From Chiloscyllium plagiosum (Eukaryota): a DNA stretch of 64,000 nucleotides. Below, one piece after another: positions 1 through 58,156 of this stretch. The number at the start of each line of letters is the position of its first letter. The first letter of the stretch is position 1. The stretch covers positions 39,968,872 to 40,032,871 of the forward strand of contig NC_057719.1 of assembly GCF_004010195.1 (NCBI RefSeq), read 5' to 3'. Under the pieces are notes generated by a model that saw only the letters and a program-made list of their open reading frames with translations, was not told the DNA's origin and did no database searches. A program made the position numbers and the translations under genes.

Positions 1-1714
1 GTCAAGACCATATAAGATATAATAGAATCAGAATATGTACTATTTCATTAAAATGATAACTTGTTAAAAAAAAAATTCAAGCTGGTGGAGGTGTTTAAAG
101 ATGTAATAGTAGATGGGGAAAAAGAATATTTCCATTGATTGGTGGGTTTGACATATTGTGTAAAAGATTGGATTTCTTATGTTCAAATCACTGGAATGGG
201 GCTTCTGTCCACTCACCTAAGAGGCTAATGCTTTGATAATTATGGAACATAAGGTTTTGATTTAGGTTAATCTTAAATTTATGTTGTCCAGTCATGCAGC
301 TGCATTGGCTACAAGCAGTTCACAGGTTGAGTGTTCTGCAACAAGTAATACCTGACTATCCAAAGCTGTTGTACCATCTACAAAGAACGTGTGAGTAGTA
401 CATTGGAATCTTTTCCACAAACTTGGCAGCTCCAACACAAGGAGTTTGTCACCCTCTAGGACATAGCATTCAAATATAATGATAAATGTTCACCACTTCA
501 ACCACTGTACCAGCCTGACTGTAGTGTGCCACCATTGATACTTCACAGCAACTCACGATGGCTTTTTCAACAGTACCTTTTGTACCTGTGATCATTAATG
601 CATGGAGGGGGAAGGGAAACAATGACATTGGAACTGAAATAACTACACATAGGCCAGTATTCCTGTTACCAAGTCACCCTTTGTTTACTTGTACACAGTA
701 CACTGGCTGTGGCCAGCCAGCTTAGAGTCAGTCCCCTGAACTGAGGGGATACCAAATCCCTGTTTATATTTTTTTCTCTAACAGGGGTAGTACTTATTTT
801 TCCCCAGCACTCCAGTTTTGTGTGTTTGTAGGTGTAAGACACAGTAAATGAACAAGTGCATAAAACTTTATTCATAATCCCCCACCAGGAAGAAAGAAAA
901 CACCTGGATGGCATTGCCGCCCTCCCATGTTTGTTTTTGTTTCTAACTGAGAAGATTCTAATCTTCTGGTTATTTTTTTTCCTCTTTTTTTCTCCCACAC
1001 TACTACCTAACAGTGGTAGTGCTTATTTTTCCCCAGCACACATGTTATGTGTGCAGATGTAGGACACAGTATATGAACAATGAGTACATAAATCTTTATT
1101 CATTGTCCACCACCAGGAAGGAAAGAAATACCCGAGTGGCCAGTGACCAGCAATGCCCTTCTCATCAAAGAGGAATGCTGTGTGATCAGGAGGTGAAGGT
1201 GGGGTGGGGTGCAGGGACTAAATCAAAATAGAGTCAGAGGGGGCAATAAAGCACTCCACACCCTGCGGTGTCCACCTCTCCCTTAAAACCTCAAGAGTGT
1301 CGGTAGACAGTGTGCTCCTCCTTCAGGGGCATCCAGGTTCAAATGTAAGCGCGCAAGAGGGGCAGGCAATCTGCCCTAAGGCCTCCCACTGCACGGCCAG
1401 CTGCCTGGACCGGTTTATGGCCAGTTTGGCCAGGCCCAGAAACAGATCCATGAGGAGGTCCTCTGACCTGCCTTTCTTCCCTCTGCACCTGGTGCCTGAA
1501 GATCAGGAGTGTGGGGCTTAAGTCTAACCAAAAGCAGAGGAGAAGGTTTTTCAGAAAACTAAAAAGGGAGTGCAAGTGCCCACACTCAATATATACATTG
1601 TACATGGACTCCATCCACTGTTTATTTATTTTTTCTTAACAAGCGTGTAAATCTTTATTTATATTCCACCACCAAGAAGCAAGGAAACACCTGAGTGGCC
1701 AGTGACAAGCAATA

Positions 1715-1925
1715 GAGATGGAAATGTGTTGCTGGAAAAGCGCAGCAGGTCAGGCAGCATCGAGGGAACGGGAGAATCGACGTTTCGGGCATTAGCCCTT
1801 CTTCAGGCTAATGCCCGAAACGTCGATTCTCCTGTTCCCTAGATGCTGCCTGACCTGCTGCGCTTTTCCAGCAACACATTTCCATCTCTGATCTCCAGCA
1901 TCTGCAGACCTCACTTTCTCCTCAC
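1715..1925. mobile_element. Palindromic Penelope-type terminal-repeat insert nested in a Tx1 unit
   Basis: ~85-bp inverted arms; TGACAAGCAATA duplicated at 1703-1714 and 1926-1937; CTGAAGA...CGAAACGTC core on the minus strand. Confidence 0.8.
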
Positions 1926-3594
1926 TGACAAGCAATACCCTTCTCGACAAAGGGGAATGTTGTGTGATCAAAAAAGTTAAGGGGAGTGCAGGGATTAAAT
2001 CAAAATAGAGATGGAGGGGGTATAAAACACCCACTCCCTGCGGTGACCACCTCTCCCTGAAAACCTCACGGGTGTTTGTAGACACTGCATGCTTCCTCTC
2101 CAGGGACACCCAGGCAGGGACATAACTATGGAAGAGGAACAGGCAATTGGCCCTAACGACCCCCTCCAATGCCCACTGCATTTATGGCCAGTTTGACCAG
2201 GCCCAGGAGTAGACCCATGAGGAGGTCCTTTGACCTAGCGTCCCCCCTCCTCCGCACCGGGAGCCCAAAGTTCAGGAGCGTAGGGCTGAAGTGCAACCAA
2301 AAACAGAGGATAATGTTTTCAAGAAAATCAAAAAGGGACTGTAAATGTCCACACCCTATATATATATATACATGGTCCATAGACTCTATCCACTTTTTTT
2401 TCCACACTACCGCCTAACAGCAGTACATCCCTGTTTATATTTGTTCTCATTTAAAAAAAAATCAGACCCCATTAAAAAGGAATACCAGTTAACTGACTAT
2501 ATAATACAGCAATCAGATCCTCCCCCAAAAAAGCGGAACCCAACAGCAGCAGTAACACGTTGACTGTGGTCCGGCTAGCTCAGAGTCAGTCTCCTGAACT
2601 GAGGAGATTCTAAATCTCTTGTTAACGTTTTGTTTTCCCTTTTCTTTCTTCCAAACTAAGACAATTCTAATCTCCTGTTAATTTTTTTTTGTGCTTATAT
2701 TTTCCCCAGCACCCATGTGTGTGTGTAGGTGTGAAACACAGTGAAAAACAGCAGGTGTACAAATCTTTATTCAATTCACACCACCAGGAACAAAGGAAAC
2801 ACTTGAGTGGCCAGTGACAAGCAATGCTCTTTTCATCAAAGGGCCATGCTGCGTTATCAAACAAGTGAAGGGGAGGGCAGGGATTTAATCAGAGTTGGAG
2901 GGGGGAAATGAAACACTCCACTCCCTGCAGTGCCCACCTCTCCCTGAACAGCGCAAGGGTGTTAGTAGACACTGCAAGTTCCTCCAGGGACACCCGGGCG
3001 TGGACATAGCTGCGGAAGATGGGCAGGCAATCGACCATAACGACCTCCTCCACGGATTGCTGCCTGGATCTGTTTGTGGCCAGTTTGGCCAGGCCCAGGA
3101 GCAGACCCATGGGGACATCCTTTGACCTACTTTCCTCCCTCCACACTGGGTGCCCAAAGATCAGGAGCATGGGGCTGAAGTGCAACCAGAAAGAGGAGAA
3201 GGTTTTTAAGAAAATCAAAAAGGGGGTATAAATGCCCACACCCAATATATACATGGTCTATGGACTCGATGCCTTGTTTACTTTTTCCACACTGCTGCCT
3301 AACAGCAGTACATCCCCTGTTTACTTTTTTTCTCAGTGAGCTGGTTGTCTGACACTTATGTTTTTTCCCTTTCTTCCACCAGAAAGTAGTAGTGTCATGT
3401 TGGGCATGTGTCGGACATAGTGAAAAACAAGTGTGTAAATCTTTATTTATATTCCAGTGCAAGGAAGAAAGGAAACACCTGAGTGCCCTTCTCCAGGGAC
3501 ACCTGGGCCATCCCCTGTTTGTAGTGTCTCTGCCTCAGTCAGTGTAACTGAGATTGTGAATTAAATATTGTGTCTCTGCCCCAGTCAGTATATT

Positions 3595-3891
3595 TTAGAT
3601 TACATTTCCTACAATGTGGAAACAGGCCCTTTGGCCCAACAAGTCCCACACCGACCTTCCGAAGAGCAACCCACCCAGACCCATTTGCCTCTAACTAATA
3701 CTCCTAACACTAAGTGAATTGGCCATGTTAATTTGCCCAGACCTGCACATCTTTTGGACTGTAGGAGGAAACTGGAGCACCCGGAGGAAACCCACGCAGA
3801 CACTGGTAGAATGTGCAAACTCCACATAGACAGTCGCCCGAAGCTGGGTCCCTGGCGTTGTGAGGCAGCAGTGCTAGCCACTGTGATGCCT
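3595..3891 (-). mobile_element. tRNA-derived HE1-like V-SINE nested in the Tx1 array
   Basis: tRNA-like head, GTGGAGTTTGCACATTCT core, AATCT tail. Confidence 0.85.
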
Positions 3892-5439
3892 CATTCCCTG
3901 TTTATATTTTTTCTTCTTTTTCTTTTTTTTTCCTAAGGTGATTCTAATTTCCTGTTTTTTCTTCTCCCTTATCCCCACACTATTGCCTAAATGTGGTTGT
4001 GCTTATATTTTCCCCAGCACCCATGTTGTGTGTGTGTGCAGGTGTGAGACACAGTGAAAAGACAAACAGATGTACCAATCTTTATTCAATTCCCACCACC
4101 TGGAAGAAAGGAAACACCCGAGTGGCCAGTGACAAGCAATGCCCTTCACATCAAAGGGCAATGCTGCGTGATGAAAAAAGTGAAGGGAAGGGTCGGGATT
4201 AAATCAAAATAGAGTTGGGGGTGGGGGGGGAATAAAACACTCCAATCCCTGCGGTGTCCACCTTTCCCTGAACAGCTCGAGGGAGTTGGTAGATACCACG
4301 TGTTCCTTCTCCCAGGACACTCTGGCTCGCCCAAAGATCAGGAACGTAGGACTGAAGTGCAACCAGAAACAGAGGAAGGTTCATCCTGTTTATTTTTCTT
4401 TCTTTTTTTAAGAAGAAGAAACAAATACTTCAAAATAAACTCCTCCTCAATGGGAAGACACCAACAGAATCTGTCTCCTTTTTAATGCAAGAAGAAAAAA
4501 AAAGCAGAGCCCTTCACTCACACTGATCCAGCTCCCTCAGACAGCTCTGAGTGAACAGGATGTCTGACACTCCTGTTCTTTTTTTACTCATTTTTTTTCT
4601 TTTCCCCAGCACCCATGTGTGTGTGTGCAGGTGTGAGACACAGTGAAAGACACAAGGTGTACAAATCTTTATTCAATTTCCATCACCAGGAAGAAAGGAA
4701 ATACCCAAGTGGCCAGTGACCAACAGTGCCCTCCTAAGAGGGCAATACTGCGTGATCAAACAGTGAAGGGAAGAGCAGGAATTACATCAAAATAGAGGAG
4801 GAAAGAAAGCACTCCATTCCCTGCGGTGCCCACCTCTCCCTGAACAGCCTGAGGGAGTAGGTAGATACCACGTGCTCCTTCTCCCAGGACACCTGAGCTC
4901 GTCCAAAGATCAGGAGCGTAAGTCTGAAGTGCAACCAGAAATAGAAGAAAGTTCATCCCCTATTTATTTTTTCTTCTTTTCCAGCACCCATGTTGCATCC
5001 CCTGTTTATATTGGTCAGCCAGTCCTCCTTGATAGTCCCAGATTAACAACCCTAATCAAGGACCTCATAGTCATCAAGCTCTACCTGATTCCAATCACTA
5101 CATGAATAAAAGCCAGTCTCTCCATGTTGACTCAAAAATATATTGTTGCTGAATCAAAATAGAGCAGACTATGGGTGTATCAACACCATGTGCGGGCCAC
5201 ATTCCATGAGCAAATAAAAAAAAAAAGTAAAAGATTACAAAGGGACAAATTTAAAAAGTAAAGGAGTTAGAAGTGATGTTTTATATGCAGCAACTTATTA
5301 GAATGTGGAATACCCTACCAAAACCATTAATCAAAACAATATTCTTAAATTACTTTTATCAGGGAAGTCGATTTACCTATATCTAACTTGGGAACGCTTG
5401 TACTCTCAAATGTGATTCCATACAGGGGTGTAATTTTAA

Positions 5440-5535
5440 AGAGTTGTAAAATGTGGTGCTGGAAAAACACAGCAGGCCAGGCAGCATCCGAGGAGCAGGG
5501 GAATCGACGTTTTGGGCATAAGCCCTTCTTCAGTA
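5440..5535. mobile_element. Single-arm Penelope-type terminal repeat
   Basis: Same sequence as the left arm of 1715-1925. Confidence 0.7.
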
Positions 5536-34600: not shown

Positions 34601-37600
34601 TAAAATAGGTATTAAAGTAAAATGATGCTAGTTGAGGACTGATCATCCATTTTTATTATAATCGTAACAATTTACATCTTTTGAATATAAACTAACTTAT
34701 CTTGGAAAATATTTCTTGGGCAGTAAGAGAAAAAAAAGTACAAAAACAAGCAAAGGCCACATATATTAAAAAAAAATGCTGTCAATTTTGGATTTTTCAG
34801 GCACCTCAAATTCATATCCCTCAACTCACTGATCAATTTTTCTGCAAACGTTTAACCTGGTTATCATCACTATCCAAAGTGACAATCCATTTATTTTCTC
34901 AGTCTTTGAAGAAATAATTTAAAATTTAGCTCATGGTTCCCTGGTATAGCTACATCAAAAATTAATTAACACTTAAAAAATACCACATTTTTAAAAACGT
35001 CACTGCCCCCATTCCCTTTGGAGGTTAGACCTTGATGAGCTCCTGGGTTATCTGCTCCAAATTCATTTTTGACCAATCAGGTTAAGTTTTACGGCACTTC
35101 AAAGAATTTGAACGCTGTCTCTCTAGCTTATTGCTATATTTTTAATTTTCTAGCTTCAATCAAAGACTTTCAGAGATTATTATGTTAATTGCTGTAGCTT
35201 GACTGAGCTTTAAGGGAGGCAGACCACCTTTCAAGTGTACAGGCTAGCTGTATCTCATGCTAACAGCATCTGTTTCTGGGACCAATGCTGAATATAGAGC
35301 CAGCCAATAACACATTTCCACTGAAATCCTATTGAACAGCAGACAGATGTTTAACCAACTGCAACAGTAATCACACATTACAATAGAACTTTACAACAGG
35401 CCAATCCAATTTTTTTTAACTCATCGTGTTTGACTACATAACATCAGTAACTGCATTTCAAAACCAACTATTTGGATAATTTGAAGGCATGATAGGAACT
35501 ATATAAAGATTCCTGTCATTCTGAACTGAGCCTTTTTCTCCATCCTTTTTTTAAATAGGCCCGGTGAGAACAGCTTTGTCTCTCTTATCATCACATCATA
35601 GCAAAAGTGAAATGAAACAGTAAACCAAATATCTAAAACAATTTTGTTTGTACCTGCATCTTGTCCACCATAGCTACATGGAAACTGTACAGACAGGGAC
35701 AGCTGCATGCAAATTTGTGTCTTGCCTGCTGAACTCTCACCAACTATTTCAGTAATTCCCATTAATGGGATTCCACCTCCAAGTAGTGAGTCCACGACTG
35801 GACAACCCATGCTAAGTTTTCGCTTCTGGGTTGGAAAAGGACATTCTCCATTGTATATTTGCAGGGCTGAGGAAAACACATTGAACAAAAAAAACTTAGT
35901 TTATTGCATATAATTTTAATTATTTAGAAATATTTGTTAGAATCAAAAGCTTAAAGTATAATTTACAGTTGAAGAAGCATATACACACTCACTAAGATTA
36001 TAAACTTTGGAGAGATATATACTTTTCAATACATATTGTTATTCTATTTCACTTTAATAATTCAAAGCCATTTCTTGCCCTTCTTGTTACTTACAGATCC
36101 TAACAGGCAGGAAAGCAGACAATAATTATATTGGTTCATCTCATACTCCACATTACAATTCAAGGTGCACAAAAGTAAGAAAATTCAATTCACCAACTCT
36201 TTTGATCCTTCTCAATTATTCATTTAAAGAAAGGAAGTATGAAGTTGCATTCAAAGAAAGAAATTACTAAATGATGTTTACAAGCACAATCTGTTCTATA
36301 ATACAATTTGTTAATATGTTCAAGCAGTGAAACCTCGGTTCCTTGTTTGTGAAAAATAATCCAAATTATTTATTCAACTTACATTACCATTACTCTCAAA
36401 ATTTAGTGTTTTTCTGATAACAATTCACTTCTCTCTCTCTCCACAATTTCAAAAGCATTGGCTGTCCACAAGCATCTCACCCAATACCTACTTTTATTGT
36501 GTAACCCTGCAATGATTTTAGGAGCAGACCTAACCACAAAGAACAATACAGCTGATCACAAATCATTTTTCATATGACATCAGGTGCATGTTTTTAAGGA
36601 TGCAATCAGGATGGAGCGCTTGCAGATTTTGCCCATGCCTTGCTCAAGTGGTATTAAGTTAATCATTATGAACTAACTACCAAACCACTAGAAACTAACT
36701 TTAGATGTTATCTGCAGCTTGAACATATGTACCTGTGATTCCATATGACAGCATTTATCTACTATAAACCCAAGCTGTGTGTTCTTATTCTATTTACAGT
36801 TAACATTGAAATCTCACAGCTCTGTGGATGGCTTAATTCATAATTCCCTCAATCTCTGTCCAATGAATTTAAACTCAATAACTCAGAGTTAAGCTCTAGA
36901 TTGGCATTCATCACCATCAGCTACATAAAGGCACATTATTAGAAACTGGAACATAAATTATACCTGCATTGTGATTAAGCTCTGTAAAACTTACAAATTT
37001 TAAACATAACAAATCTGAAGATTTAAGCAAGTGTTAAGCAACTGTTTCAGCAAAATATTAAATTGAAGCCACTTAAATATCACTGAACATTAAATAACTT
37101 TAAAGATTCATTACAAGACATCAATTTGTTCAAAGTTTTAGAACAATTTGTGAATTATGTTAAAACATATTCAAGATATTTTTAAGTGTTTATTTGGCAC
37201 TGATTTCTGATCTTGCAGAGATATGATTATATTCTAACTTTTACACACCTGTTACCACAGGATCACTCTTTATTGTTGCTGCAACAGTTTTATGCAAATA
37301 TTGCACATCAGAACTGGACAACTTAGTGAGTCTCTGCAGATCTGGTCCCGAAAGACATAAGATTTCTTTCATTGTTTGGATGTTTGCTATGGGAGAAAAG
37401 ATTTTTTTGTAGAAATATTACTGCAAAACATACTTGGCTATGACAAACTAGACCAGAAACAACCATTATTACCAATTGAGCCATGTGGTCATACAGCTAC
37501 CAAATTCTATACACAATAATAGGTACATGGCACTAAATCCCTTACCAAAATAACAAATCCTACTGTTTTTTATTCAATGCAAAACAATAAAATGTCTACT

Positions 37601-39803: not shown

Positions 39804-58156
<18,353 letters not shown>

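Follow-up and report, generated by a model that had tools for sequence, protein, structure and literature searches.

The question raised by positions 635-5102 of a 64-kb stretch of Chiloscyllium plagiosum DNA (the window, i.e. the whole stretch that was analysed) is how so many insertions came to be stacked at a single point of another element. This segment is a ~225-bp solo long terminal repeat (LTR), Gypsy-like, that about ten inserts with T-tails interrupt at its predicted TATA box, each of them on the same strand as the LTR; among these inserts are units of a long interspersed nuclear element (LINE) of Tx1 type. An earlier note on this DNA had described the LINE as a sequence-specific hyperparasite of an LTR promoter. 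Searches of the 3.56-Gb genome, in which the samples throughout are the top-scoring matches of each search and not random draws, lead to an answer that is considered probable: the LINE has a sense-orientation preference for the predicted TATA box of two LTR families, the target is duplicated and reused, and the LTR promoter is likely relied upon.

The target and its host

A motif search allowing up to three mismatches yields 13 matches in the window, 10 of them inside 755-5012, where 2.46 are expected for the whole window and none of 100 shuffles reached 13; further decayed copies are seen by eye near 958, 2388, 2613, 2670, 3269, 3947 and 4568. All of the motif copies listed in the earlier note are present. 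The two halves of the split repeat, searched separately, both correspond to a ~225-bp repeat that has TG...CA ends and is found uninterrupted elsewhere in the genome. The 3' part (R/U5) of this family A LTR lies on the minus strand at 635-770, with TG at 635 and the target motif at its end (756-770), and is 87% identical to an uninterrupted copy over 134 nt. The 5' part (U3), at 4996-5102 on the minus strand, reaches to the predicted TATA box (motif 4996-5012) and is 78% identical to an uninterrupted copy; 40 scored genomic matches terminate at the same terminus as this half. The outer 5-bp duplication of the solo LTR is decayed in the window (3/5 match), and exact 5-bp duplications flank the LTR at loci L008, L009, L011, L063 and L115, most other copies retaining 3-4 of the 5 bases.

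At five of seven loci that were extended to 10 kb, two LTRs enclose 3-4.5 kb of disrupted sequence from gag, protease, RNase H and integrase, and at L115 an exact 5-bp duplication surrounds the entire two-LTR element. The host is thus the LTR of an LTR retrotransposon, as judged by its TG...CA ends, its duplications and the LTR pairs around an internal region, and the conjecture that the joined halves are an LTR is borne out. In each of the five two-LTR elements, three of which had been found via their whole LTR, one LTR is interrupted at the target site and the other is whole, an empty-site control that is built into the elements themselves. An integrase fragment of L113 passes the Pfam cut-off (Integrase_H2C2, expect value (E) 1e-6), and three other host-element fragments gave no Pfam match. 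The host is presumably a Gypsy element, an assumption drawn from known motifs and domain order, the placement of RNase H before integrase in L112 likewise coming from such motifs. A sister family, LTR-B, is identical to LTR-A at 162 of 209 positions and has Tx1 inserts at the homologous site; LTR length over the two families ranges from ~225 to 240 bp.

On the minus strand of uninterrupted LTRs, an initiator-like word occurs at +28 in 13 of 19 A copies and at +30 in 17 of 19 B copies, with AATAAA downstream of it in 13/19 of either family. Transcription from a TATA box is expected to begin ~25-30 nt downstream of it. CCAAT is found in 12/19 A and 9/19 B copies, and a clean TATA-like word in just 9/19 A and 7/19 B, frequencies that speak against a promoter at the target. 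Because of these counts the TATA box that the earlier note had recognized is plausible yet remains predicted. Many surviving whole LTRs are altered in the target word (e.g. AAG for AAA in LTR-B), and are possibly survivors that have escaped insertion.

Targeting is genome-wide and is a strong preference, but a leaky one. Three Tx1 queries (3' untranslated region (UTR), second open reading frame (ORF2) and 5' end) were used, with 40 candidates scored and 30 loci taken for each; 86 loci remained when self was dropped and one locus without alignment was lost. LTR-A or LTR-B lies within 1.5 kb in the same orientation at 47 of the 86 loci and in the opposite orientation at 3, vs 0 of 34 control pieces; the resulting 55%, a lower bound that comes from top-scoring matches, is above the level (>20% of flanks in one repeat type) that Kojima uses to call an element target-specific. 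The 7-letter motif core is exact at 52 of 161 5' junctions (82 loci) vs 0.8% in the control, and within one mismatch at 98 of them vs 10% and 15% in two controls. Since the core begins 2-7 nt past the junction in 81 of these 98, the duplications are ~11-17 bp long. Counted over the LTRs instead, a Tx1-family insert occupies the site in 10 of 29 LTR-A copies, and two more have a T-tail there; counts by eye gave Tx1 inserts in 5/29 LTR-B copies and Tx1 adjoining 12 of 19 LTR right halves.

Each of nine hand-picked Tx1 copies outside LTRs has a duplication particular to it, 12-18 bp of a look-alike word, and because of such off-target copies the motif must belong to the target and not to the element. 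Motif variants are locus-specific, and uninterrupted LTRs carry a single motif copy. The flanks of genomic copies are not random, the motif is not a fixed 3' end of the LINE and the halves do form an LTR, so that none of the three outcomes that the earlier note had named as fatal to it is encountered; its claim of sequence specificity holds as a preference and fails for the off-target copies. Telling against specificity are the use of top-scoring matches as samples, the 39 of 86 loci that have no LTR within 1.5 kb, and the 63 of 161 5' junctions with at least two motif mismatches. That the element is real, of the Tx1 clade and LTR-targeting is very nearly certain. Other sequences also occupy the site: L053 (~1640) has a different short repeat there, and L063 and L056 have T-tailed sequences not assigned to a family, possibly further passengers of the Tx1 enzyme.

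The LINE itself is seen in L121, where a nearly complete copy (~7.7 kb) lies within LTR-B and has frames for ORF1, an apurinic/apyrimidinic-type (APE) endonuclease, reverse transcriptase and a zinc motif. PF00078 is matched at E 8e-13, and PF03372 (E 6e-4) and PF13966 (E 9e-5) at levels that fall short of Pfam's cut-off; the ORF1 frame gave no Pfam match. The endonuclease region has Xenopus Tx1 ORF2 as its best named match (41% over 85% of 474 aa, E 7.7e-90), with closer unnamed matches in turtle and sturgeon (P0001, P0002) and a far weaker one to human L1 (E 8.6e-17). Judged by best match, the LINE is placed in the Tx1 clade, nearer to Tx1 than to L1 proper, as the earlier note had it; the minus-strand units in the window translate to the C-terminus of Tx1 ORF2 (43% to Xenopus Tx1 ORF2, E 2e-13), and 5' truncation, an A-rich tail and target-site duplication are further features of the clade that are found here. 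The ESM Atlas returned only unnamed zf-RVT clusters, with a recognition score below threshold. Extension of 20 loci from the 5' end showed that L160, L165, L167, L170 and L172 hold long copies flanked on either side by an LTR half. In the Tx1 5' UTR of L121 (7500-8900) lies a GC-rich tandem repeat that is long and varies in copy number.

LTR sequence at the front of the inserts

A copy of the LTR R region stands at the start of full-length copies, of an older Tx1 subfamily and of a non-coding family of ~1.6-1.8 kb, so that three lineages (young Tx1, older Tx1 and the non-coding family) have R-derived heads. The heads reproduce the 60-75 nt that directly follow the motif, ending before the AATAAA of the LTR. 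The older subfamily is represented in the window by a 5'-end fragment on the minus strand at 4413-4584 that lies inside the LTR-A host and starts with LTR-B R (68/71 to LTR-B vs 37/49 to LTR-A); relatives of this fragment continue into ORF1 (L259, 51%, E 2e-11). The non-coding family is represented by a 5'-end fragment at 2445-2623, also on the minus strand, which is 78% identical to the head of the L258 element and starts with LTR-A R (63/72 to LTR-A vs 47/61 to LTR-B). This family is present whole at the same site in L258, and an older Tx1 copy shares 791 nt of its 5' region with it at 70%; tblastn gave no Tx1 protein match in the six extended loci L253-L258. L119 starts with LTR-B R right at the motif (59/73), and in the young subfamily the head is decayed (33/44).

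The young subfamily has in addition, upstream of its head, a piece taken from the end of its own ORF2 and from its 3' UTR, present in 29 of 29 full-length 5' ends, two of which may be one locus. The fused piece is 19-664 nt long and starts at positions 123-142 of the Tx1 reference on which unit extents are numbered here, i.e. past the AATAAA at 100-105. Five 5' repeats compared with their own 3' ends gave 95.4, 91.2, 81.4, 90.3 and 92.3% identity, the own pair not being the best in its row, although the age of the copies limits this comparison. A perfect 5'/3' repeat of the TART type was rejected, because the own-copy identity that it calls for was not found.

These front ends suggest how an inserted LINE might be expressed. 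The APE endonuclease would nick the T-rich strand in CCTGTTT/ATATT, the T-rich end priming on the poly(A) tail, and a second nick would fall a few bases beyond the TATA word; the duplication of ~11-17 bp leaves the site reusable. An insert at the site would come to lie directly beneath U3-CCAAT-TATA. Heads made of the first ~60-75 nt of R would preserve the native spacing of the predicted initiator and lack the AATAAA of the LTR, and with the young fusion beginning past the element's own AATAAA an LTR transcript could reach ORF1. Because its own front end carries LTR pieces the LINE likely borrows the promoter of its host LTR, an interpretation that is preferred with some reserve. The LTR-derived heads lend indirect support to the description of the LINE as a hyperparasite of the promoter, and the transcript start which that description implies was not seen: RNA run X21 showed no place within 1-3700 where many molecules start or end. 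That result counts against promoter use. A further point against the overall explanation is that the 5' repeat of a full-length copy matches its own 3' end no better than those of other copies. Most X21 reads are 90-95% alike to the window and so come from other copies, the copies in the window being old.

A rival explanation accepts the targeting and drops the promoter, supposing that the endonuclease prefers a word made of CCTG and a T-tract that happens to be the TATA region of the LTR, and that the heads are passive by-products of read-through. Nicking at a T-tract/A junction is typical of L1-type enzymes, off-target copies do sit in look-alike words and the lack of a start site in X21 is as expected on this explanation, but it does not account for heads that end before AATAAA in all three lineages, or for a fusion without AATAAA in every one of the 29 young copies. 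The nearly fixed orientation (47 vs 3) also argues against it, though for this a strand-asymmetric motif alone would suffice. Absence of any promoter link is for these reasons held to be doubtful.

Promoter borrowing may extend to a larger assemblage. It is possible, and is advanced here tentatively, that two Tx1 subfamilies and a non-coding passenger form a guild of promoter-less LINEs that lives on Gypsy LTR promoters and completes its 5' junctions by copying from neighbours; TATA-box cutting, the initiator-region copy and the fusion that lacks a poly(A) signal would together amount to a HeT-A/TART-like logic in dispersed LTRs.

Growth of the stack

Different RNAs must have arrived repeatedly, since one stack holds different families as well as both head types. 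The earlier note had proposed that each insertion regenerates the target so that successive copies pile up; the target is indeed duplicated and reused, but independent insertion leaves a further feature unexplained. Within loci, 48 of 227 pairs of units have the same 5' end (within 3 nt) vs 213 of 20255 pairs (1%) between loci, and in a larger set, from which seven duplicate loci had been dropped beforehand, the same 5' end is seen in 92 of 345 pairs at 34 of 133 loci. Because stack units so often have one locus-specific 5' end, simple independent re-insertion is incomplete as an explanation. Same-end pairs have 19 shared rare alleles and 431 private ones, which places the copying near the time of insertion, and late DNA duplication as the main source of these units was rejected on the same counts. 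When one pair is taken from each of the 34 loci, the shared rare alleles number 14, all of them no more than 150 nt away from the shared end (4206 sites), and the 3794 sites beyond have none (p ~1e-4 by hand, ~0.008 without the nearest 40 nt); the 3' starts differ at 20 of the 34.

A later insert at an occupied site may often close the junction on its 5' side by pairing with the neighbour that already resides there, whose last 50-150 nt would be copied to give a unit with a new tail and the neighbour's 5' end. Such finishing of a new cDNA on a resident neighbour is given an even chance of being correct, and is favoured over recombination and over reiteration in one event. Two of the results weigh against it: 8 of the 14 shared alleles are no farther than 40 nt from the end, a stretch in which overshooting alignments could fake them, and divergence of same-end pairs shows no gradient (8.9% near the shared end, 9.1-9.5% far from it). 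Two sets of loci bear on where 5' ends fall. In the stack of L122 (3200-9900) the 5' ends of three long units coincide at reference 1937, whereas their 3' ends differ, one of them being cut inside ORF2. At L129, L131, L152 and L173 the 5' ends lie near reference 760-786, where the LINE resembles the last bases of the target, likely a microhomology hot spot.

Early unequal recombination between tandem units, maybe started at a nick in the regenerated site, would leave the targeting unchanged and likewise predicts shared alleles near the 5' end together with different 3' ends. Recombination of this kind does occur, and since it could yield the same pattern it is a further point against neighbour copying. 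Organism C, which is ~5% diverged, has the stack, which must then be older than the split between the two, and has, instead of window units 2 and 3, one chimeric unit whose join falls at homologous points of the two (window 2179 to 3093); since these two units are 18% different from each other, far more than organism C is from the window, the chimera represents loss by recombination. However, the 19 shared vs 431 private rare alleles would require the exchange to have taken place near insertion time, a third unit would be needed as donor of the new tail whereas L018, L024 and L190 have only two aligned units, and the LTR-B heads inside the LTR-A of the window had to arrive as RNA. Recombination is accordingly rated unlikely as the source of the same-end units.

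Somewhat less likely again is the production of several units in one event, in which reverse transcriptase copies a 5'-broken RNA, jumps to the target overhang, makes a T-rich end anew and primes on that RNA a second time. For R2, template jumping is a known process, as cited in PMC2718515. The same 5' end, the variable 3' start and the near absence of shared age-related changes would all follow, as would runs of motif and T-tail without a body, such as those at L121 9300-9390. But shared rare alleles would be predicted along the whole unit and not just within 150 nt of its end, and other families or a full-length copy sometimes stand between same-end units.

The weakest alternative, on which the motif forms part of the LINE's own 3' end or the array arose by local tandem duplication or faulty assembly, could draw on the 5' ends common to units 1-3 and to units 4-5 and on the deletion common to units 4-5, but is refuted, and its probability made negligible, by off-target copies that lack the motif and have other duplications, by the locus-specific motif variants and single motif copies of uninterrupted LTRs, by differences of 12-22% between units and by independent contigs that bridge junctions in 1-3700. 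It is the left junction that contigs of three other sequencing runs bridge, for which reason the 1-3700 part of the stack is not an assembly artefact. Several small sequencing runs of uncertain kind contain 72-83% of the stack's sampled words; no RNA run is among the runs listed for these words.

The remaining parts of the stack can be placed between the two LTR halves in order, all on the minus strand unless stated. Adjoining the R/U5 half is a T-tail with a Tx1 3'-end unit, unit 0 (771-921, reference 9-146), followed at 922-998 by a decayed motif, a T-tail, a short LTR-A R piece with motif and another T-tail, as read by eye. Unit 1 (999-1613, reference 1-614) is 79% identical to a full-length copy and encodes the ORF2 C-terminus. 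Unit 2 (1638-2385) is interrupted at ~1715-1925 by a later unrelated repeat that has a 12-bp duplication and is missing from the contig of organism C; this repeat is very abundant and partly palindromic, and another copy lies at 5449-5533. A Tx1 3' tip of 25 nt with a motif copy at 2425-2441 makes up 2400-2441 and precedes the non-coding fragment. Unit 3 (2691-3267, reference 21-612) has its 5' end as in unit 1, from which it is 22.5% different, and 3268-3525 consists of a motif, a second 25-nt tip, the motif at 3311, an internally deleted Tx1 unit and the motif at 3509. An abundant SINE-like (short interspersed element) repeat at 3593-3890, for which no strand is assigned, lies outside the Tx1 system and is 70-84% identical to several other places in the window. 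Unit 4 (3986-4381, reference 8-343 and 494-548) is preceded by the motif at 3892 and a short R piece. Beyond the older-subfamily fragment, unit 5 (4594-4953) shows the internal deletion and 5' end of unit 4, from which it is 12.5% different, and the U3 half is reached through a motif, a T-tail and a 15-nt Tx1 piece (4954-4995). The poly(T) and Tx1 3' end that were said to follow most motifs thus do not follow every one of them: not those at 2426 and 4382, which lead into the LTR-headed 5' fragments, nor that at 3509, which is followed by other sequence and the SINE-like repeat.

Elsewhere in the window, 35502-35900 (minus strand) is an exon of a Rad51-family gene (PF08423, E 5e-12) that looks like XRCC3. 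A 30-bp tandem repeat of ~8 copies with 77% matches lies at 40434-40670 within a minus-strand open frame of 190 codons.

Known systems and implications

The closest known elements are the crocodilian Tx1-8_Crp and Tx1-4_AMi, which like the present LINE belong to the Tx1 clade and prefer specific LTR retrotransposons (Kojima 2015, PMC4494074); the consulted text of that paper gives no site within those elements and describes no LTR-derived heads or 5' fusion for them. Site-specific insertion into another transposon, with a target common to non-autonomous partners, is shared with Tx1L of Xenopus laevis, found in the piggyBac-type Tx1D, and with Tx1-Mar and SINEU in Mariner-N4_AMi (PMC4494074), but the targets of these are DNA transposons and here the target is a predicted RNA polymerase II (Pol II) core promoter. 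SINEU-2B has a 5' extension from its target, and transcription from the target has been proposed for it (PMC4494074); in that system it is SINEU-2B that carries target sequence, whereas here the autonomous LINE itself does so.

Stacking via target duplication, together with off-target copies, is also seen in R1 of Drosophila, where a duplicated target of 14 bp lies between the copies of a tandem array (Stage and Eickbush 2009, PMC2718515) and in which target sequence that the RNA carries at its 5' end can anneal to form the junction (PMC2718515). R1 differs in its clade, in its 28S rDNA location and in having upstream and not downstream target sequence on the RNA, and shared 5' truncations within arrays are not among the features that the available part of that paper describes. 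TART of Drosophila, for which neighbour read-through or a template jump has been proposed, resembles the present LINE in having a direct repeat common to its 5' end and 3' region (Maxwell et al. 2006, PMC1636488), but is telomeric and of another clade, and here the repeat is the ORF2 end plus proximal 3' UTR. Celine (PMC11288735) inserts in LTR elements without a fixed site, as far as the consulted part of the paper describes it, and was set aside as no match. No LINE aimed at the TATA box of an LTR was found in the literature, nor this system in cartilaginous fish, with Repbase, Dfam, the Kojima 2015 supplement and most subscription papers lying outside the scope of the search. It appears that the element is of a known kind and that its site and 5' architecture are undescribed; the earlier note's tentative impression that the target had not been described has to give way for the target class, Tx1 elements in specific LTR retrotransposons being in print, and may hold for the LTR TATA site.

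The principle of a Tx1 element aimed at another transposon is therefore an established one, and what is new here are the LTR-R heads, the 5' fusion without a poly(A) signal and the locus-specific shared 5' ends. The endonuclease, with a preference spanning 7-17 bp, would also be relevant to work on targeted insertion. If the present interpretation is true, hundreds to thousands of natural loci (458-3243 first-look candidates per query, which are not copy numbers) would be available for the study of target-specific LINE transcription and 5'-junction closure, and a predicted Pol II core promoter would join the list of targets of APE-type LINEs. The guild of promoter-less LINEs, if it exists as proposed, would have knocked out a sizeable share of the LTR promoters of its host.

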